Source: Bacteroidota bacterium
GTDB taxonomy: Bacteria > Bacteroidota > Bacteroidia > Bacteroidales > WCHB1-69
Length of the DNA stretch: 64,000 nucleotides
Direction of reading: 5' to 3'
NCBI GenBank assembly: GCA_037130365.1
Contig: JBAXTE010000003.1
Location: 15,458 to 79,457, forward strand
How positions within the stretch are numbered: position 1 is the stretch's first letter; each line of letters begins with the position of its first letter. A program made the position numbers and the translations under genes. The notes below the pieces were generated by a model. It was not told the DNA's origin. It did not search any database and saw only the letters and a list, made by a program, of their open reading frames with translations. Shown here piece after piece: positions 7,134 to 33,032 of this stretch.

Positions 7134-8120
7134 ATGACGAAATTTTTAGTATTAGGACTAGGTTCAATGGGAAAAAGAAGAGTGAGATGTCTTAAATCGC
7201 TTGGATACTCTTCAATTACAGGATTTGATTTTCGTGAGGATAGACGGCAAGAAGCAAAGGAAAAATATGGTATTGAGACCTTAGATTCTGTTGATTCCTC
7301 AACAATTTCAGCCTTCGATGTGCTTATTATTTCAACACCTCCCGATCAACATACTCATTATGCAAAATTAGCTATAGATAACTTAAAACCAGCATTTATC
7401 GAAGGAAGTGTGCTTTTAAATGAGGTTAAAGAATTAATTGCATATAACAAAAATCAAGTTTTTTTAGCACCTTCGTGTACACTGAAATTCCATCCAATAA
7501 TAAAGGATATTTCTTCGCTAATTAAAGATAAAAAATATGGTAAAGTAACAAACTTCTCATACCACTCTGGTCAATTTTTGCCTGATTGGCACCCATGGGA
7601 AAATGTGAAAGATTTTTATGTTTCAAAACGTGAAACTGGTGCTGGAAGAGAGATTGTACCCTTTGAATTAACTTGGATTGTAGATGCAATTGGGTGGCCA
7701 AATGATGTGAAAGGTGTTTTTGGTAAGACTTTAGAAGTAGGTGCGGAAATAGATGATACATATGCTTTTTTGCTAGATTATAAAACATTTTTTGGGAGTA
7801 TTATTGTTGATGTAGCTGCAAGATTTGCGACTCGTAATTTGATAATAAACTTAGAAAGAGCTCAATTACTTTGGAATTGGGAAGATGGTGTTTTAAAACT
7901 TTATGAAGCGGATTCAATGAGATGGATATCATTTCATCAACCAGAAAGTTTAGCCGCAGCAGGTTATAATAAAAATATTATTGAAAAAATGTATATTGAC
8001 GAAATCGATGCATTTATTATGGGAATTAAAAACCCAGCTAATTATCCAAATAGTTTAGAGGATGATTTAAAGGTGCTTCAAATTTTAGATAAAATTGAAA
8101 AAAGTTATGGAGGATTTTAA
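7134..8120 (+). CDS. Gfo/Idh/MocA-like NAD(P)-dependent oxidoreductase
   Basis: Rossmann start FLVLGLGSMGKRRV, size, and operon context. Confidence 0.65.
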   Translation: MTKFLVLGLGSMGKRRVRCLKSLGYSSITGFDFREDRRQEAKEKYGIETLDSVDSSTISAFDVLIISTPPDQHTHYAKLAIDNLKPAFIEGSVLLNEVKELIAYNKNQVFLAPSCTLKFHPIIKDISSLIKDKKYGKVTNFSYHSGQFLPDWHPWENVKDFYVSKRETGAGREIVPFELTWIVDAIGWPNDVKGVFGKTLEVGAEIDDTYAFLLDYKTFFGSIIVDVAARFATRNLIINLERAQLLWNWEDGVLKLYEADSMRWISFHQPESLAAAGYNKNIIEKMYIDEIDAFIMGIKNPANYPNSLEDDLKVLQILDKIEKSYGGF

Positions 8121-8121
8121 T

Positions 8122-9414
8122 ATGAATTATAGCGAAAGATTAAACAAAGCAATTCCTGGTGGTGCACATACCTATAGCAGAGGCGATGACCAATATCCAT
8201 CAAATGCTCCCCAAATATTCGAAAAAGGGGAAGGTGCTTATATTTATACACCAGAAGGCGATAAGTTTTTAGATTACGGAATGGCTCTTCGTGCAGTTAC
8301 CTTGGGTTATGGCCAAAAAGATGTTGCAGAAGCTGCTGTTAAACAAATTTACAACGGGAACAATCTCACTAGAGCATCAATAATTGAACTCGAAGCTGCC
8401 GAACTTTTAATTGATTTAATCCCTTCGGTTGATATGGTTAAATTTGCAAAAAATGGCTCTAATGTTACAACTGCAGCAGTAAAAATTGCACGAGCTTATA
8501 CTGGAAGAAAATATATTGTACGTTGTTTTGAGCATCCATTTTTCTCATTCGACGATTGGTTTATTGGCGATACTCCTCTAAAAAAAGGAATTCCTGAAGA
8601 GTTTTATAATCTAACGTTAAACTTTAAATACAACGACATTAGTTCTTTACAATTGCTTTTTGATAAATATCCAAATCAAATTGCCGGCGTTATATTAGAA
8701 CCTGCTGCTTCTGTACATCCAATTGATGGATTTTTGCATAAAGTAAAAGACTTATGCCATAAAAATGGTTCTTTGTTTATTCTTGACGAAATGATTACTG
8801 GATTTAGATGGCATTTGCAAGGTGCTCAAGTTTATTACGATATAGAATCTGACTTATGCACTTTTGGCAAAGGTATGGCAAATGGATTTTCTGTTTGTGC
8901 GTTAGCTGGGAAAAGAGAATTTATGAAAATTGGTGGTATAAAAGAGGAAGGTGCCGAAAGGGTGTTTTTAACTTCTACTACTCACGGTGCTGAAATGTGT
9001 GGACTCGGTGCATTTGTAAAATCAATTCAATTCTATAAAGAAAATAATGTTGTGGATCATTTGTGGAGTTATGGAAACAAACTTATGGATGGAATGAATC
9101 AAATTGCTAAAGATTTGAACCTTCAAGATTGCTTCGAGGCAAACGGAATTGCTTGCTCTCCTGGTTATGCTACCAAAGATCATTTAGGAAATGTTTCTCT
9201 TCCTTTCCGTACTCTGTTTTCTCAAGAAATGATTAAAAATGGCGTGTTAATGCCTTGGATTGCAATTTCTTATGCTCATACCGATAATGAATTACAATTT
9301 ACACTTGATGCGGTCCGAAAATCACTTGAAGTTTATAAATTAGCTATTAATCAAGGAGTTGAAAAATATTTAGTTGGTCCTTCAATTAAACCTGTTTTTA
9401 GACAATTTAATTAA
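8122..9414 (+). CDS. Class-III PLP aminotransferase (glutamate-1-semialdehyde 2,1-aminomutase-like)
   Basis: IPGGAHTYSRG, DEMITGFR, and the FGKGMANG lysine motif. I prefer the ATG at 8122, just after the upstream stop at 8120, over the TTG at 8095 used by the ORF track. Confidence 0.85.
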   Translation: MNYSERLNKAIPGGAHTYSRGDDQYPSNAPQIFEKGEGAYIYTPEGDKFLDYGMALRAVTLGYGQKDVAEAAVKQIYNGNNLTRASIIELEAAELLIDLIPSVDMVKFAKNGSNVTTAAVKIARAYTGRKYIVRCFEHPFFSFDDWFIGDTPLKKGIPEEFYNLTLNFKYNDISSLQLLFDKYPNQIAGVILEPAASVHPIDGFLHKVKDLCHKNGSLFILDEMITGFRWHLQGAQVYYDIESDLCTFGKGMANGFSVCALAGKREFMKIGGIKEEGAERVFLTSTTHGAEMCGLGAFVKSIQFYKENNVVDHLWSYGNKLMDGMNQIAKDLNLQDCFEANGIACSPGYATKDHLGNVSLPFRTLFSQEMIKNGVLMPWIAISYAHTDNELQFTLDAVRKSLEVYKLAINQGVEKYLVGPSIKPVFRQFN

Positions 9415-26202: not shown

Positions 26203-28548
26203 ATGTACTCTTTTAACTTCAACAATAAAAAGCATTTATTAGTAAGCTTAATTTTGTTAATTATTGGCACATTCTTTCTCTATTTCAACACCTTTTCAGG
26301 GCATCTTCTTAATTGGGATGATACAACTTATTTGCTTAATAATAGGCTTTTTAGTCAAAATTTTAATTTAAAAAGTCTACAAAATATTTACCAAAGCGAC
26401 CATCATATCTCATTAGTGCTGATGTCGTTTTTTGCTCAAATAAAATGGTTGGGATTTAATCCATACGAATTTCATTTAGTGAATATTTTCATCCACATAT
26501 TGAATGTATTATTAGTTTTTTTCTTGTCAAAAACGCTTTTAAAGAATAATGTTTGGGCTTTAATTATTGCATTATTATTTGCCATTCATCCAATGAGAAG
26601 TGAAACGGTAGGGTGGATTTTTCAACGTAAAGATTTATTTTTTACATTTTTCTTCTTGTTAAGCTCATTAAGTTTCATTTCTTTTTTAAAGACCAAAAAT
26701 ATACTATTATTAGCCTTAGTGTTTATCTTCGGGTATTTGTCTTCGTTGAGTAAAATCCAAGCAATTACTCTCCCTCTAATTATAATTGCATTAGAATTTT
26801 ATATTCGCAAAACAGTATCTGTCAAATCACTAACAACAGCAATGATCCTGTTTGTATTTCAAATTGATGTTCTAATGAGTTTCAACCAAATAGTGTTGCT
26901 ATTGCTTATTCCATCACTAATTAGTATTTATTATAAACAATTGAGTCATCAATTTATATTAACAAGTGAGATTTTAAAAAGAAAATTTAAGAATAAAATC
27001 ATTCAAAAGCACGCATCTCAAATAAACATCGCTAACTTAATAATTCTGAGTTATATTGTCTTTTTTGTGTTTTTTAAACTCATCAACAATCTTGATTCTG
27101 ATTATTTGAAAAATGTAATATTTTCGATTATTCCATTAGTTGTTTTTTATATCTTCATTGCTCATCAACACATAACTTATAAATGGAAGAATCACCTATT
27201 AATATTGATTGCGATGGTGATTTTATCCGGAATCGTACTGTTTTTAATCGTAAAAGTTGATACTTCAATGACTAAAAATTCGACATATCCACTCATTAAG
27301 CGAATCGAGTTTGGGATTTATAGCTTTAATTACTACATACTTAAGTTTTTCTTTCCGTTTAATTTAAGTGCAATGCACCCATACCCAGATAATGCCCAAA
27401 AACCATTATCGCTATTATTTCAAATATCTCCATATTTGTTTATAACCATTTCATCAGTGGTCGGATATTTTATCGCAAAAATGAAAAATAAAGCTCTTCG
27501 CAATAATCTTATTTTCGGTATTGTGTTTTTTGTAATAAACATTTCATTGGTCCTTCATATTATTCCAATAGAGGGAAGAGTAATTGTAGCCGATAGATAC
27601 ACATATCTTGCTTATTTTGGATTATTTTTCGCCATTGTTCCGCTTATATTTTCAATTTACAACAAGTGGCGAAACAATAAATTTGCGAGCTATTTTATAA
27701 AGTCTTTTGCAATATTAATATTTATCATTTTCAGTTTTCAAACATTTTCGAGAAACAAAGTGTGGCAAAACGATGAAGTTTTTTGGACCGATGTGATAAA
27801 AAAAGACAAATCAAACCACTATGCAAATTACAGCCTAGCTCTATTTTACTACGAACAACAAGATTACGAAAGAGCCATTGGGTTCTACGATAAAGCGATT
27901 CAGAAGTTTGATAATGATTTTGAGTATTACACCAACCGAGGTGCCTGTTATGTAAAGTTAAAAGAAACCACAAAAGCCATTGACGATTTTGCTCGAGCCA
28001 TTGATTTGAATCCAAAAAATGCTTATGCATATAACAATAGAGGCTCCCTTTTTCTACAAATAGGAGATATTAGAAATGCCTTCATCGATTTTCAAATTGC
28101 AACTCAAATCGATTCTAATTATGCGGATGCTAAAGCCAATTTCGAAAAAACTAAGATGTTGCAAACAGCTATTTCAAGCACATCATCCTCAATCGATTAC
28201 AGTCCAGAAAAGTCTCAATTATTTAATGATATTGGCGTCAAAAAAGCGATGAATGGGGATATCGAAAATGCACTTCCAGATTTCAACAAAGCGGTTCTCC
28301 TCGATTCTTTAAATGTTAATGCATACAAAAACAGAGGAAATGCTTATGCCTCGCTTAAAAAATTTGATGAAGCCATGTTTGATTACAACAAAGTACTCAA
28401 ATTTAATCCTAACGATGCAGGGATCTTTATGAATATTGGGAATATTAAACATCAACAAAATGATAAATCTGCTTGCGAATATTGGCAAAAAGCAAAAAAG
28501 TTAGGGCTTAAGGATGCTCAGCAAATGCTAAATAAGTTTTGTAAATAG
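26203..28548 (+). CDS. Polytopic GT-C-like membrane protein with C-terminal TPR repeats (TMTC/PMT_2-like)
   Basis: N-terminal roughly 520 aa has many TM helices, with NWDDTTYLLNN in the first loop (a DD motif as in GT-C enzymes). C-terminal roughly 260 aa has repeated A..Y.N.G...........A..DF..A tetratricopeptide units. Confidence 0.75.
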   Translation: MYSFNFNNKKHLLVSLILLIIGTFFLYFNTFSGHLLNWDDTTYLLNNRLFSQNFNLKSLQNIYQSDHHISLVLMSFFAQIKWLGFNPYEFHLVNIFIHILNVLLVFFLSKTLLKNNVWALIIALLFAIHPMRSETVGWIFQRKDLFFTFFFLLSSLSFISFLKTKNILLLALVFIFGYLSSLSKIQAITLPLIIIALEFYIRKTVSVKSLTTAMILFVFQIDVLMSFNQIVLLLLIPSLISIYYKQLSHQFILTSEILKRKFKNKIIQKHASQINIANLIILSYIVFFVFFKLINNLDSDYLKNVIFSIIPLVVFYIFIAHQHITYKWKNHLLILIAMVILSGIVLFLIVKVDTSMTKNSTYPLIKRIEFGIYSFNYYILKFFFPFNLSAMHPYPDNAQKPLSLLFQISPYLFITISSVVGYFIAKMKNKALRNNLIFGIVFFVINISLVLHIIPIEGRVIVADRYTYLAYFGLFFAIVPLIFSIYNKWRNNKFASYFIKSFAILIFIIFSFQTFSRNKVWQNDEVFWTDVIKKDKSNHYANYSLALFYYEQQDYERAIGFYDKAIQKFDNDFEYYTNRGACYVKLKETTKAIDDFARAIDLNPKNAYAYNNRGSLFLQIGDIRNAFIDFQIATQIDSNYADAKANFEKTKMLQTAISSTSSSIDYSPEKSQLFNDIGVKKAMNGDIENALPDFNKAVLLDSLNVNAYKNRGNAYASLKKFDEAMFDYNKVLKFNPNDAGIFMNIGNIKHQQNDKSACEYWQKAKKLGLKDAQQMLNKFCK

Positions 28549-28687: not shown

Positions 28688-30553
28688 ATGAAACGGATTT
28701 TAGGAATATCTGCTTTTTTTCACGATTCTTCTGCTGTTTTGCTAGAAGATGGAAAAATTATTGCAGCTGTTCAAGAAGAACGGTTTACACGCGAAAAACA
28801 CACTGAGAAATTTCCTATAAACTCCATTAAATATTGTTTGGAAGCTGGAAATATTGAACTCGATGAACTTGACGCAATTGTCTTTTACGAAAAACCGTTT
28901 CTGAAGTTTGAAAGATTGATTGAAACATATTATACTTTCGCACCAAAAGGAATTTTGTCATTTTTAAAGGCAATGCCTTCGTGGTTAAACGAAAAACTGT
29001 TTTTAAAAAAAACAATTAAAGATGAACTTAGCAAAATTGGGTTTTATGATCGCAAAAGGACGAAACTTCTTTTTTCTGAGCATCATTTATCCCATGCAGC
29101 AAGTGCATTTTTTTCGTCACCATTTAATGAGTCAGCAATACTTACGATTGATGGCGTTGGAGAATGGACTACTGCTAGCATTGCAATGGGGAGTAATAAT
29201 TCCATCAAAATATTAAAAGAGCTTCACTTTCCTCATTCTGTTGGACTTTTATACAGTGCTTTTACCTATTTTCTTGGGTTTAGTGTTAATTCTGGTGAGT
29301 ATAAACTGATGGGATTAGCTCCTTATGGCAATCCTAATCATTGCGAAACATTGAGATTTATTGATATAATTAAAAAATCATTGGTTGATATTAAAGAGGA
29401 TGGCTCAATTAGAATAAATCAAAAATATTTTACGTATGCTACTGGATTAAAAATGGTTAGATTAAATAAATGGGAACATTTATTTGGTATTAAATGCAGA
29501 AAAGCTGAAGATGAAATACTTCAAAGCCATTCAAATTTAGCATTTGCCATACAGAAAGTTACCGAAGAAATCGTGTTAAAAATGGCACAAACGGCTAAGT
29601 CTCTTACAAATTCAACTAATCTATGCTTGGCGGGTGGAGTTGCACTTAATTGTGTAGCTAACGGCGTTTTACTCAGATCTAATATTTTCAAAAATATTTT
29701 TATTCAGCCAGCTTCAGGAGATGCTGGAGGAGCTTTAGGTGCTGCATTGTCAGTGAATTTTATGTATTATGAAAATCCAAGAATATCCGATGAGCAAAAT
29801 GATATTATGCAAGGAGCATTTCTAGGTCCCGATTTTTCAAATAGAGATATCGAAAAGCTAAATCGGAAAACATTAGCAGAGTTTCAACATTTTAAAGATT
29901 TTGATGTACTATCAAAAAATGTTGCTGATTTAATTTCAATAGGAAATATCGTGGGCTGGTTTCAGGGTAGAATGGAATTCGGACCACGTGCGTTGGGTAA
30001 CAGAAGCATATTGGGTGATGCGCGAAATAATGAAATGCAAAAGAAACTAAACCTTAAAATTAAAAACAGAGAGGGTTTTCGTCCGTTTGCACCTTCAGTT
30101 CTTAGTGAAGATGCTCACATTTTTTTCGATTTGAAGGAAAAATCTCCATATATGCTTTTTGTGGCAAATATTAATAACGAAATCAAGCATGAAGTCTCCA
30201 AAGATTACGAAGATTTTGATTTTTGGAAAAAGCTTTATGTTCAACGGAGTGATGTTCCTGCAATTACTCATGTGGATTTTTCTGCGCGAGTTCAAACGGT
30301 ACATAAAGAAACTAACCCCAAATATCATCAACTGATTTCTGATTTTAAAAATCTCACGGGATGTCCGCTTATTGTAAATACAAGTTTTAATGTAAGAGGC
30401 GAACCTATTGTTTGTTCTCCCGAAGATGCCTATATCTGCTTTATGAGTACTGATATGGATTATTTGGTCATAAATGATTACCTCTATTGCAAGACGGAGC
30501 AGCCTAATTGGGAACGTAAAGATAAATGGAAAATTAAATTTAAACTAGACTAA
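28688..30553 (+). CDS. NodU/CmcH-family carbamoyltransferase
   Basis: ILGISAFFHDSSAVLL, EERFTREKH, HHLSHAASAF, GGVALNCVANG, and C-terminal VNTSFNVRGEPIVCSPEDA. Confidence 0.9.
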   Translation: MKRILGISAFFHDSSAVLLEDGKIIAAVQEERFTREKHTEKFPINSIKYCLEAGNIELDELDAIVFYEKPFLKFERLIETYYTFAPKGILSFLKAMPSWLNEKLFLKKTIKDELSKIGFYDRKRTKLLFSEHHLSHAASAFFSSPFNESAILTIDGVGEWTTASIAMGSNNSIKILKELHFPHSVGLLYSAFTYFLGFSVNSGEYKLMGLAPYGNPNHCETLRFIDIIKKSLVDIKEDGSIRINQKYFTYATGLKMVRLNKWEHLFGIKCRKAEDEILQSHSNLAFAIQKVTEEIVLKMAQTAKSLTNSTNLCLAGGVALNCVANGVLLRSNIFKNIFIQPASGDAGGALGAALSVNFMYYENPRISDEQNDIMQGAFLGPDFSNRDIEKLNRKTLAEFQHFKDFDVLSKNVADLISIGNIVGWFQGRMEFGPRALGNRSILGDARNNEMQKKLNLKIKNREGFRPFAPSVLSEDAHIFFDLKEKSPYMLFVANINNEIKHEVSKDYEDFDFWKKLYVQRSDVPAITHVDFSARVQTVHKETNPKYHQLISDFKNLTGCPLIVNTSFNVRGEPIVCSPEDAYICFMSTDMDYLVINDYLYCKTEQPNWERKDKWKIKFKLD

Positions 30554-30585
30554 TCAATAAAATAAAATTTGCTAAACGTAAGATT

Positions 30586-30735
30586 ATGGAAACATTTAAA
30601 GATCTTTGGCTATTTATGAAAGAACGGAAGAAATTCTGGCTAGCTCCCATTATTATCGTTTTACTTTTAGTAGGATTATTACTCGTATTTGGAGGAAGCA
30701 GTTCTGTTGCTCCATTTGTTTATACACTTTTTTAA
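30586..30735 (+). CDS. DUF5989-family small membrane protein (SxtK-like), 49 aa; not in the supplied ORF track
   Basis: My own translation is METFKDLWLFMKERKKFWLAPIIIVLLLVGLLLVFGGSSSVAPFVYTLF. It matches the family pattern (KERKKFWL.PII..LLL.G.L......S.VAPF.YTLF) and the canonical position after a carbamoyltransferase. Confidence 0.8.
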   Translation: METFKDLWLFMKERKKFWLAPIIIVLLLVGLLLVFGGSSSVAPFVYTLF

Positions 30736-30744
30736 ATAAAAAAC

Positions 30745-31113
30745 ATGAGTTCAAATCAGAATAATCCTGCCATTACAGTGCTAACCATTATTGTGGGATT
30801 AATTACTGTTTACATATTTACTGATATTCGTGTATTGATATATATTGCCACAGGTATTGGAATCATCAGTTTGATTTCGTCTTTTGTTCGGGAGAAAATT
30901 CATATAATTTGGTTTTTTATTATTAAAATCTTAGCTCAAATTTTTCCAAAAATCATATTATTTATAATCTTTTATGTTGTATTAACCCCTGTGGCAATAC
31001 TTTCAAAGCTATTTACAAAAAATGATATTTTGAAGCTTTCGAAAAATTACAACTCATATTTTAATCAAAGAAGTGGTTCTTTTTCTAAAATTGATTTTGA
31101 AAAAATTTGGTAA
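30745..31113 (+). CDS. SxtJ-family small membrane protein
   Basis: 122 aa with 3-4 TM helices. Position directly after the carbamoyltransferase + DUF5989 pair matches the known SxtI/SxtK/SxtJ-type neighbourhood. Confidence 0.55.
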   Translation: MSSNQNNPAITVLTIIVGLITVYIFTDIRVLIYIATGIGIISLISSFVREKIHIIWFFIIKILAQIFPKIILFIIFYVVLTPVAILSKLFTKNDILKLSKNYNSYFNQRSGSFSKIDFEKIW

Positions 31114-31124
31114 GCAGTGCCTGC

Positions 31125-31230
31125 AAGAAAACGCCAACTTTTTCGTTATTCTTGCAACGAATTTAGGTTATTTACTCATGTAAACGCCCCAAATCCGTTG
31201 CTGCGAAAGCCTTAAATTTGACGTTTTCTT
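31125..31230. repeat. About 105-nt long imperfect nested hairpin downstream of the SxtJ-like gene
   Basis: The outer arm 31125-31141 pairs with 31214-31230 at 15 of 17 positions. The inner arm 31154-31167 pairs imperfectly with 31187-31201. Confidence 0.45.
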
Positions 31231-31271
31231 ATCAATCACTGAGTTTTATATCAAGCATTAGTAATATTTAG

Positions 31272-33032
31272 ATGTATGAAATTATGAATTTTATTGTGAA
31301 TAAAAAATCTAAAACAATTATTTTAGCTTTTGCTTTAGGAATGATTGTTCTCTTCTTTTTTTATTACCTAAACAGCCTTAATTTTTATGGAAACTTTTCA
31401 ATTCAAGTATGGCAGAAAGATAAAAACATCTCAGAAAACACGAAGTTAAGAGGTGTTAGTTTTTTTAATAGAGAATATAATTTAGGCTACCAGCAAGGAA
31501 AATGGATAAATAATGACGGATGTTATAAAGAAATACAGATTACATTCACACAACCAATTATAAGCGACTCAAACAGAATAACAGTCCTTTTTACTAAAGA
31601 TGACATACATTACTCAAAAGAAATTCGACTTTCTGAAATAAAAGGCAACAGAGCTTCGATTACAAAGGTTATCATCGATGAACCCTTTTATAAAACCAGT
31701 TTAAAGTATTTTGACTTTTTAATCAAGAAGTATTCTATTAGAGGAAACAGATTAATTATCTTTTTGTCATTTGGGATTTTTGTTTTAATAGTTTTTTTTC
31801 GTCGATATAAGCATAATGGAATGATTGAAAAAGCACTATGGGGATTTCTTCTTATTAGCTTTCTTTTGGCATTCGTTCCGCTTATCGTTCTAAACAAAAC
31901 GCTTACATATACTGGTTTTTGGTTGCTATTTTTTGTTTTTTCTTCAATACTAATTTTACTCATTTTTCTCTCGAAAAAAGTCAAGTATCTAAACAAAAAT
32001 ATGATTTTGCTCTTTGCAAGTTTCTTTACAATAATCCTATGTATTGAATTATTGCTTAGATTGTTTGGCGTTAATAAATCATATTCGGAAAAGAAGGAAG
32101 GTTTTGTTCGTTTCATCTCAGAACAATCTCAATTAAATGAGTATTTTTATAATAGGAAGCCCAATCATTCATTTTTACTAAATATGTCTGGTGAATTTTC
32201 ATATCCTAGAACTACAAATTCTATTGGGTTAAGTGATATAGAAACTACTTCTAAAAAGGCAGAGAATGATTATTTAATAATGGCACTTGGAGATTCATTT
32301 ACCGAGGGCGATGGCGCTGATTCAGATTCCACTTGGATGAAATTCTTGGAACGGAAAATCGGGAAAAAGGATACTGTAAATTATAGATTTATAAATGCAG
32401 GTATTTGTGGAAGCGATCCAGTGTATGAGTATAAGCTTTTTGTAGACAAATTAATTGCTTATAAACCAAATCTTGTAATATGTGCTTATGGGTATGATTT
32501 GCAAGAGGTTATTCTTAGAGGTGGTTTCGAAAGATTTAATACTGATAATAACAAAACTCCTATTATATCCCCAAGTCTTGAGTTTCTGTATTCCATATCA
32601 TACATAAGTCGCTTGGTAATAAATGAAATACATGATTTAGATTATCAATTAATTAATTCTAAACAGTTTGAATCAGAACGACAAAATGCAATTCGTACTA
32701 TTAATAACGTAATCTTGATGTTTAAAGAACTATCATTAAAAAATGATTTTAAGCTATTATTCGTTTTTTACCCGTTAAAACATGAAGTTGAGGGTAATAA
32801 ATATGATTATTGGAATGAAGTTATTCGTTTTGCAACAAAAAACGAGATTGACGTTTTTCCTTTGTTACATTATTTTAGCGATATAGAAAAAGTAGATTCT
32901 GCAAATGTGAAGGAATACTATTGGAAAACCGATGGCCACTATAATGCGAAAGGCTATCAAGCTTTTGGCAACGGAGTTTATTGGAAATTGACGAATATGG
33001 GGTTGTTGCAAGAAAATACAATTGCAAAATAA
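31272..33032 (+). CDS. Membrane protein with N-terminal extracytoplasmic domain, TM bundle and C-terminal SGNH/GDSL hydrolase domain
   Basis: IMALGDSFTEGDGA (block I), FINAGICGSDP (block II), and C-terminal YYWKTDGHYNAKGY (DxxH block). Several TM helices lie at residues about 150-270. Confidence 0.75.
   Translation: MYEIMNFIVNKKSKTIILAFALGMIVLFFFYYLNSLNFYGNFSIQVWQKDKNISENTKLRGVSFFNREYNLGYQQGKWINNDGCYKEIQITFTQPIISDSNRITVLFTKDDIHYSKEIRLSEIKGNRASITKVIIDEPFYKTSLKYFDFLIKKYSIRGNRLIIFLSFGIFVLIVFFRRYKHNGMIEKALWGFLLISFLLAFVPLIVLNKTLTYTGFWLLFFVFSSILILLIFLSKKVKYLNKNMILLFASFFTIILCIELLLRLFGVNKSYSEKKEGFVRFISEQSQLNEYFYNRKPNHSFLLNMSGEFSYPRTTNSIGLSDIETTSKKAENDYLIMALGDSFTEGDGADSDSTWMKFLERKIGKKDTVNYRFINAGICGSDPVYEYKLFVDKLIAYKPNLVICAYGYDLQEVILRGGFERFNTDNNKTPIISPSLEFLYSISYISRLVINEIHDLDYQLINSKQFESERQNAIRTINNVILMFKELSLKNDFKLLFVFYPLKHEVEGNKYDYWNEVIRFATKNEIDVFPLLHYFSDIEKVDSANVKEYYWKTDGHYNAKGYQAFGNGVYWKLTNMGLLQENTIAK

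Follow-up and report, generated by a model that had tools for sequence, protein, structure and literature searches.

A candidate trans-membrane relay for glycan O-carbamoylation: a carbamoyltransferase, two small membrane proteins and an SGNH protein in a Bacteroidia glycan locus

SxtJ and SxtK, described with the saxitoxin (sxt) cluster in 2008, are still given as working "in conjunction" with the O-carbamoyltransferase SxtI (PMC2679770, PMC2885083, bioRxiv 10.64898/2026.06.11.731795). The published sizes of sxtI, sxtJ, sxtK and sxtL are 1839, 405, 165 and 1281 bp (PMC2679770). A GPRALGxRS-type motif is cited as the putative catalytic site of SxtI (bioRxiv 10.64898/2026.06.11.731795), and SxtL, a GDSL lipase, has been put forward as the enzyme that removes carbamoyl (PMC2885083, PMC2679770). 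Here we analyze a 64,000-nucleotide stretch of contig JBAXTE010000003.1 (the window, which always means this whole stretch) from an uncultured freshwater member of the class Bacteroidia (Bacteroidota), in which the same four gene types stand in a row: an O-carbamoyltransferase with a GPRALGxRS motif (CT), a DUF5989/SxtK-type microprotein of about 50 residues (K), an SxtJ-type membrane protein (J) and a second, membrane-bound protein carrying a GDSL/SGNH domain. We propose, at about even odds of being right, that these four genes work as a single module, in which a trans-membrane relay would bring about the O-carbamoylation of an exported glycan.

Two further kinds of described system bear on this locus. 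TobZ, GdmN and NovN are stand-alone soluble enzymes acting on antibiotics, whereas the CT clade of the window is locked to two membrane proteins; TobZ-type enzymes make carbamoyl-AMP from carbamoyl phosphate and ATP. The Dlt and PatA–PatB systems use a cytoplasmic activated acyl donor, as proposed below for the window's module. In these systems the sequence FxYxxF is the acyl-shuttle motif of DltX and of the C-termini of bacterial MBOAT proteins, and the shuttle tyrosine hands its acyl load over to the SGNH partner's serine (PMC12148441). The partners PatB and DltD have esterase-like folds, yet act as transferases (PMC12148441). DltX and K are alike in that both are small single-pass proteins with a predicted N-in/C-out orientation, an extracytoplasmic C-terminal FxYxxF and a membrane-anchored SGNH partner (PMC12148441). 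Where Dlt and PatAB have an MBOAT, the window has an ATP-dependent CT together with J, and the transferred group would be carbamoyl instead of acetyl or D-alanyl.

Compared with sxtI-J-K-L, the window shows the order CT-K-J-SGNH, a divergent J that falls below the Pfam threshold, and a setting in a glycan locus without toxin core genes. Its SGNH protein has about 260 extra N-terminal residues and four more transmembrane (TM) helices than the sxt-type SGNH proteins, and the gene corresponds to sxtL by position and literature only. The sxt order itself, with gene sizes to match, recurs outside toxin clusters: in three cyanobacterial non-toxin loci (L187, L188 and L190) the genes run CT, J (134-168 residues), K (54 residues) and SGNH (421-422 residues). 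The L187 module is flanked by an AT3 acyltransferase gene and a PMT_2 (ArnT-like GT-C) gene. We inspected 20 loci among the cyanobacterial carriers of K, looking for a true sxt cluster; one candidate (L174) has similar gene sizes but lies in a housekeeping context (MnmA, transglutaminase) and was rejected. No SxtL-named homologue of a cyanobacterial SGNH protein was found among the 120 matches listed. The association of CT, J and K has been known since the saxitoxin cluster papers, Pfam families exist for SxtJ and SxtK, and the window is another member of this very common module. DUF5989 found no mention in the literature searched, and the reading of the four genes as a carbamoyl variant of the acyl-tyrosine shuttle appears to be unpublished.

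The four proteins and the C-terminal motif of K

The original prediction, made from the letters of the window, had called four genes here, a 49-residue open reading frame (ORF) among them, and had assigned them to the SxtI, DUF5989/SxtK, SxtJ and SGNH types. All four ORFs exist at the coordinates of Table 1, on the forward strand, and comparison with profile hidden Markov models upheld the CT (PF02543, PF16861), DUF5989 (PF19451) and SGNH (GDSL_2) assignments; J, treated below, required a less direct route.

K matches PF19451 (DUF5989) with an E-value of 5.5e-25 and 87.6 bits (cut-off 27), over positions 1-49 of the 49-position model. Across 100 orthologues from many phyla, divergence at codon positions 1, 2 and 3 is 0.37, 0.16 and 0.65, and K is therefore a translated gene under purifying selection. 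The 41 K sequences from Bacteroidota form a gapless alignment with 73% mean column identity, and conservation invariably extends to the stop codon. The predicted layout comprises a basic cytoplasmic N-terminus, one TM helix and an uncharged outer tail, oriented N-in/C-out by the positive-inside rule. The last six residues, FVYTLF (codons 30715-30732), spell FxYxxF, a motif that forms the extreme C-terminus in 142 of 142 K members, with F41, Y43 and F46 invariant. Among the 16,972 ORFs of the window's genome only 14 end in this way, namely K, four MBOAT-sized proteins (474-479 residues, ending in PFIYFRF or QFIYFQF) and nine short, probably spurious frames; K is the sole ORF of this kind inside the window. 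A 47-residue ORF ending in FIYFAF (on C109) was discarded as spurious, as it overlaps a 415-residue gene on the opposite strand. No DltX family occurs among the Pfam matches of the 41 K sequences at E-values up to 10, a negative that says little against kinship in proteins this short. The original prediction had placed the carbamoylation, or carbamoyl-dependent modification, of an exported glycan possibly at the membrane, and the FxYxxF motif on K gives this idea a concrete candidate mechanism.

CT matches PF02543 (Kae1-like N-terminal domain, 7.6e-97) and PF16861 (YrdC-like C-terminal domain, 5.1e-73), with both models covered in full, and aligns over its full length and through both domains with the solved enzymes GdmN, NovN and TobZ (E-values 1.6e-92 to 5e-77). 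It carries HHLSH, the HxxxH metal site, near residue 133 and GPRALGNRS, the GPRALGxRS motif, at residue 432. A scan for hydrophobic segments returned no TM segment, as expected of a soluble protein. Three CT genes are present in the window's genome, of which only this one is accompanied by K and J. An insertion at residues 86-113 is conserved in the K/J-linked clade and absent from the 549-residue CT paralogue of the window, the comparison having been made with that paralogue. The 549-residue paralogue lies on the reverse strand with no K or J adjoining it, and a further CT gene (about 579 residues), likewise with no K or J adjoining, lies on the window's contig outside the window (Table 1).

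J has approximately four hydrophobic helices and a C-terminal tail rich in Lys and Arg. Direct Pfam and NCBIfam scans gave no assignment, and J scores 12 bits (E 0.37) on PF19588 (SxtJ), short of the 24.4-bit cut-off, aligning residues 32-91 with model positions 35-94. The SxtJ-like label of the original prediction thus did not stand on a direct Pfam match and holds through relatives. A phmmer search with J finds matches down to 4.7e-23 among the K-adjacent ORFs of other genomes, and 29 of 30 such K-adjacent relatives match PF19588 at E-values of 1 or lower, the best at 8.6e-14. The closest protein-atlas clusters to J are SxtJ (0.92), and a profile built from the J set recovers 18,074 representative clusters (at 50% identity) in a library of 1.84 billion proteins. 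Because of these phmmer matches, PF19588-matching relatives, atlas clusters and profile counts, we regard J as a divergent member of a very large SxtJ family. A word-index search with J returned only four near relatives. A dedicated search for longer fused forms of J found none, which is weak evidence.

The original prediction had also described the fourth gene as a membrane protein with a C-terminal SGNH domain, and this description is borne out. The predicted order is a first TM helix, an extracytoplasmic domain of about 120 residues, four TM helices and a periplasmic SGNH domain, the last placed in the periplasm by the positive-inside rule. The SGNH domain matches GDSL_2 at 4.7e-08, and its catalytic residues are predicted to be intact: Ser342 in block I (G-D/G-S), Asn375 in block III and Asp554-x-His556 in block V, with Asp409 also kept. 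Within the SGNH family Ser342 and Asn375 are conserved at 100% and His556 at 97%, and the D-x-H is present. Residues 1-190 (31272-31850) make up an extra module of a TM helix, the β-rich extracytoplasmic domain of about 120 residues and a TM helix, which is absent from the shorter, 383-residue SGNH paralogue and from most relatives. That paralogue lies approximately 7.5 kb downstream, and its tie to the module is uncertain.

A single-sequence fold of the whole 586-residue protein was unusable (predicted local distance difference test, pLDDT, 41); in its place stands a model built from an alignment and covering residues 185-586 (pLDDT 81, predicted template-modelling score 0.78), which gives Z-scores of 15-23 to SGNH structures. 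The best structural match is CgnD (PDB 8a2n; Z 22.8, root-mean-square deviation 3.2 Å over 240 residues, 17% identity), followed at Z 17.1 by the next; the other fold matches are mostly ordinary SGNH esterases. CgnD is a slow hydrolase and reported leader peptidase, and its crocagin cluster also encodes a carbamoyltransferase, CgnI. CgnD is soluble, whereas the window's SGNH protein is membrane-anchored. Other crocagin-like clusters carry a glycosyltransferase instead of a carbamoyltransferase, and for this reason we set aside a link of CgnD to carbamoylation as a lead only.

The original prediction had compared the SGNH protein with AlgX and AlgJ as a periplasmic transferase or esterase, and of this comparison the functional analogy alone survives. 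In AlgX and AlgJ the catalytic Asp-His precedes the Ser. The window's SGNH protein has the canonical order, its closest structure is CgnD, and it does not belong to the permuted AlgX/AlgJ family. It has no match to ALGX (PF16822), which its relatives reach only below or near threshold, and no match to the DltD family in Pfam. AlgX, AlgJ and PatB1 match only part of the SGNH profile, whose C-terminal half, up to the D-x-H, aligns with AlgX residues 67-175; this partial alignment fits the canonical Ser-first order in the window's protein.

Co-occurrence, neighbours and natural fusions

To place the module in its wider distribution, 401 genomes were sampled across Bacteroidota. Of these, 148 carry K and 146 carry J, almost always as a single copy, and 144 genomes hold both; K occurs by itself in four genomes (three at contig ends, one with a weak match) and J in two (one weak). 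In every genome with K or J there is a CT that shares at least about 48% identity with that of the window, and a comparably close CT without K and J is found in only three genomes (G367, G275 and G343). The original prediction had named co-occurrence no greater than chance as one outcome that would speak against it. Across this census the association of K, J and CT lies far beyond chance, and the triad is indeed the SxtI/SxtJ/SxtK association, very widespread across bacteria. In three genomes (G300, G198 and G013) CT, K and J lie at three separate places and are all retained. Because these separated genes have been kept, the triad is more than an operon travelling together. In these genomes, and more widely in several Bacteroidota families, K has only housekeeping neighbours (lolCE-like MacB/FtsX permeases, parA, rpiA, thymidine phosphorylase), J and CT being found elsewhere in the same genome (Table 1).

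Gene neighbourhoods were compared in 121 loci from more than 12 phyla; 80 loci came from outside Bacteroidota (Cyanobacteria, Acidobacteriota, Gemmatimonadota, Nitrospirota, Actinomycetota, Pseudomonadota, Planctomycetota and others). In the 80 outside-phylum loci J adjoins K in 74 and CT is present in approximately 68, several of the exceptions being contig ends. In Cyanobacteria, K was found in 60 of 351 genomes. Clustering of the neighbours in all 121 loci recovered CT as a recurrent family at 88 loci and J at 73, and the only recurrent neighbour besides these two is SGNH (49 of 121 loci), either as a short anchored protein of about 340-460 residues (30 loci, both window copies included) or as an anchored SGNH-TPR protein of about 650 residues (19 loci). 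Sugar-nucleotide dehydratases and GT2 enzymes recur far more rarely, and no MBOAT was seen among the recurrent neighbours or in the window.

The SGNH genes also keep close to the triad. Forty-five of 68 SGNH matches lie no more than 300 bp from a triad gene, in 44 of the 121 loci; SGNH is the direct neighbour of K in 31 cases, of CT in 20 and of J in 11, and it frequently separates CT from K or J from K. A whole-genome scan found the 383-residue paralogue to be the only other member of the window's SGNH family in its genome. Since the genome's only two members of this family both lie in this locus, chance adjacency of SGNH and triad is negligible. Of 55 triad-linked SGNH proteins, 52 have a hydrophobic anchor at the N-terminus, as do 13 of 14 cyanobacterial ones. 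The conserved module thus includes the SGNH gene, whose positional parallel with sxtL the original prediction had not drawn.

Natural fusions and variant loci add to this picture (Table 1). A gammaproteobacterial metagenome-assembled genome (MAG) encodes a 747-residue CT-J fusion (CT at residues 4-601, J at 639-741) with K directly after it. The fusion speaks for a docking of CT on J at the cytoplasmic side of the membrane. A possible second CT-J fusion (L107) is broken by a frame change. In a Nonlabens MAG without K and J (G275), an N-terminal SGNH domain, whose GDS motif lies near residue 62, is fused with a complete CT of the same clade in one protein of 951 residues; the protein has no TM segment, and its gene is flanked by MacB/FtsX-type permease genes. 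A second genome without K and J (G367) carries a row of genes for an SGNH protein (378 residues), an MBOAT (470 residues, ending in PFIYFQF), an SGNH-like protein (358 residues), a CT of the same clade (618 residues), a 123-residue ORF and a polysaccharide deacetylase. This MBOAT-SGNH-CT locus is new here, as is the SGNH-CT fusion, and neither genome has K or J. Together they fit a requirement for K and J only when the carbamoyl group must cross the membrane to SGNH without an MBOAT shuttle.

A possible carbamoyl relay and the alternatives

Because K ends in the acyl-shuttle tyrosine motif and the genes lie in a glycan cluster, the probable role of the module is to decorate an exported sugar polymer of the cell surface with carbamoyl groups. 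In the relay that we propose, the soluble CT would make activated carbamoyl in the cytoplasm while docked on the small membrane protein J. The carbamoyl group would then pass to the invariant tyrosine of the FxYxxF tail of K at the outer face of the membrane, and the anchored periplasmic SGNH protein would take it on its catalytic serine and deliver it to a hydroxyl group on a sugar in the polymer that the Wzx-type locus makes. The logic would be that of the DltB-DltX-DltD and PatA-PatB acyl-tyrosine shuttles, with CT and J replacing the MBOAT. The analysis shows which genes these are, that they co-occur, the motif, the predicted topologies and the intact catalytic residues; what accepts the carbamoyl group, that it passes through a carbamoyl-tyrosine, what J does and which way the SGNH reaction runs are inferred. 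The topologies fit such a relay: CT has no TM segment, K is predicted to be N-in/C-out, and the SGNH partners are anchored. We suggest more tentatively, and with some doubt, the general form of this idea, namely that CT, SxtJ and SxtK constitute a minimal trans-membrane acyl-transfer device without MBOAT or AT3, in which carbamoyl would be loaded on a microprotein's C-terminal tyrosine and handed from there to an SGNH transferase on the outer side.

Several points weigh against this proposal. The module includes no MBOAT- or AT3-like catalytic membrane protein, and the relay leaves the path from the cytoplasmic active site to the outer tyrosine unexplained. J offers no conserved His, Ser or Asp for catalysis, only W56, L72 and P82 being near-invariant. 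The likeness of K to DltX is one of motif and architecture, not of demonstrated kinship. Of the SGNH-CT fusion and of the MBOAT locus there is one example each, two cases that make no rule. An adjacent SGNH gene is found in only about 36-40% of loci. At the level of genomes, SGNH matches at E-values of 1e-8 or lower occur in approximately 138 of 147 genomes with K or J and approximately 88 of 254 without, an association that is enriched and not clean; these counts give a rough enrichment, as they include generic SGNH cross-matches and have lower sensitivity for the SGNH-TPR form. The acceptor in the saxitoxin cluster is a small soluble alkaloid, and TobZ, GdmN and NovN carbamoylate their final acceptor directly.

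Several of these same observations would suit a simpler arrangement, in which J and K anchor CT at the inner face of the membrane, an undecaprenyl-linked repeat unit is carbamoylated before it is flipped, and the SGNH protein is a separate esterase or O-acetyltransferase. CT is a complete enzyme of the TobZ/GdmN type, a class that transfers directly to the acceptor. The CT-J fusion demonstrates docking and no more, J has no catalytic residues, approximately 60% of the loci are without an adjacent SGNH gene, and SGNH enzymes are frequent in glycan loci. Simple anchoring, however, does not account for the invariant outer FxYxxF tail of K, present in every member from many phyla, nor for the insertion of SGNH genes among the triad genes and their preference for the side of K, nor for the fact that a genome lacking K and J encodes a soluble fusion of SGNH and CT. 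We consider this arrangement, the main rival of the relay, unlikely.

The esterase Ape1 is thought to edit peptidoglycan O-acetylation, and by analogy CT, J and K could add the carbamoyl group and the SGNH protein could act as a carbamate esterase (decarbamoylase) that trims it. Such a division of labor, which we hold to be quite improbable, would agree with the role proposed for SxtL as a GDSL lipase that cleaves carbamoyl (PMC2885083, PMC2679770), with the closest structure being CgnD, a slow hydrolase whose cluster also encodes a carbamoyltransferase, and with the majority of fold matches being esterases. SxtL is, however, a putative decarbamoylase; the esterase-like folds of PatB and DltD act as transferases (PMC12148441); an eraser has no need to be fused to its writer, as in the 951-residue SGNH-CT protein; and the tyrosine tail of K would be left without explanation. 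Modification of a small secondary metabolite in the manner of saxitoxin or crocagin, suggested by the identical gene set in sxt clusters and by a closest SGNH structure from the cluster of a peptide that is made on the ribosome and modified after translation (RiPP), is very improbable given the GT2, GT4 and GT9 enzymes, sugar aminotransferases, amidotransferases and Wzx flippase around the window's module, the sugar-nucleotide enzymes and glycosyltransferases that recur beside it elsewhere, and core toxin genes not being seen.

Setting of the module and its significance

The glycan-locus context claimed in the original prediction is confirmed: the module lies in a Wzx-type locus whose genes include GT4, GT2 and GT9 glycosyltransferases, a WbuX-type amidotransferase, a DegT aminotransferase, a Gfo/Idh/MocA oxidoreductase and a Wzx-type flippase. 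A TPR membrane protein gene lies immediately upstream of CT. No toxin core genes were seen near the module, its neighbours being genes of glycan synthesis. The stop codon of CT and the start of K are 32 nt apart, K and J nine nt, and J and the SGNH gene 158 nt. No sigma-70-type promoter or intrinsic terminator at the module exceeded shuffled controls.

Table 1. Coordinates of the module, of other features in the window and of related loci elsewhere
Feature	Position	Strand	Basis
CT, O-carbamoyltransferase, SxtI/NodU/TobZ type, 621 aa	28688-30553	+	Pfam, PDB relatives, motifs
K, DUF5989/SxtK-type microprotein, 49 aa	30586-30735	+	Pfam PF19451, codon divergence, C-terminal motif
J, divergent SxtJ-family membrane protein, 122 aa	30745-31113	+	Relatives' Pfam matches, profile search
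Palindromic dispersed repeat (REP/MITE-like) in J-SGNH spacer	31116-31247	.	Genome copies, metagenome depth
Membrane SGNH protein, 586 aa	31272-33032	+	Pfam GDSL_2, topology, catalytic residues, structure model
Shorter SGNH paralogue, 383 aa	40528-41679	+	phmmer 3.3e-72; Pfam GDSL_2
TPR membrane protein	26203-28548		
CT paralogue, 549 aa	36038-37687	-	
Further CT, about 579 aa, outside the window	G000:C54:91648-92676		
CT-J fusion, gammaproteobacterial MAG	L122:243-2486	+	
SGNH-CT fusion, Nonlabens MAG	L194:5313-8168	-	
SGNH, MBOAT and CT row in G367	L195:208-6873		
Cyanobacterial module with AT3 and PMT_2 flanks	L187:4757-11587		
K alone (L049, L050, L054, L056, L058, L060, L062, L064, L065, L073)	K at ~8000-8300 in each		

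The spacer between J and the SGNH gene is largely occupied by a palindromic dispersed repeat of about 132 nt, which has approximately 15 copies (75-93% identity) in the window's genome and is not specific to the module. Its read depth in three metagenomes is about 2.5- to 20-fold that of its flanks, with many loose ends. A close relative (the X3 contig) has 46 other letters at 31144/31145 within the repeat. Contigs about 97% identical to the window, from two other studies, show a +1/-1 indel pair four bases apart in the C-terminal region of the SGNH gene (32881-32885) and, in the same related populations, a 1-nt deletion at 30582 in the CT-K spacer; no frame-breaking change is listed in K or J. 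A 178-nt metatranscriptome contig from the probable source sample is identical to 31491-31668 in the SGNH gene, where carry-over of DNA is possible; this single contig, with nothing over K, is not evidence for or against expression.

Particular to the window are the divergent J, the outsized SGNH partner, the second SGNH paralogue, the two further CT genes without K and J on the same contig (one of them in the window), and the inserted repeat. The module as such is carried by approximately one third of the sampled Bacteroidota genomes and one sixth of the cyanobacterial genomes. If the proposed relay is correct, the acyl-tyrosine shuttle principle of Dlt and PatAB would extend to carbamoyl groups and to systems without an MBOAT, and these genes would represent a third class of bacterial envelope acylation system. 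The last carbamoylation of saxitoxin, by SxtI, SxtJ, SxtK and SxtL, would then occur at the membrane or beyond it, and SxtL would be a transferase and not a decarbamoylase, and O-carbamoylation would be a common and overlooked decoration of bacterial surface glycans.

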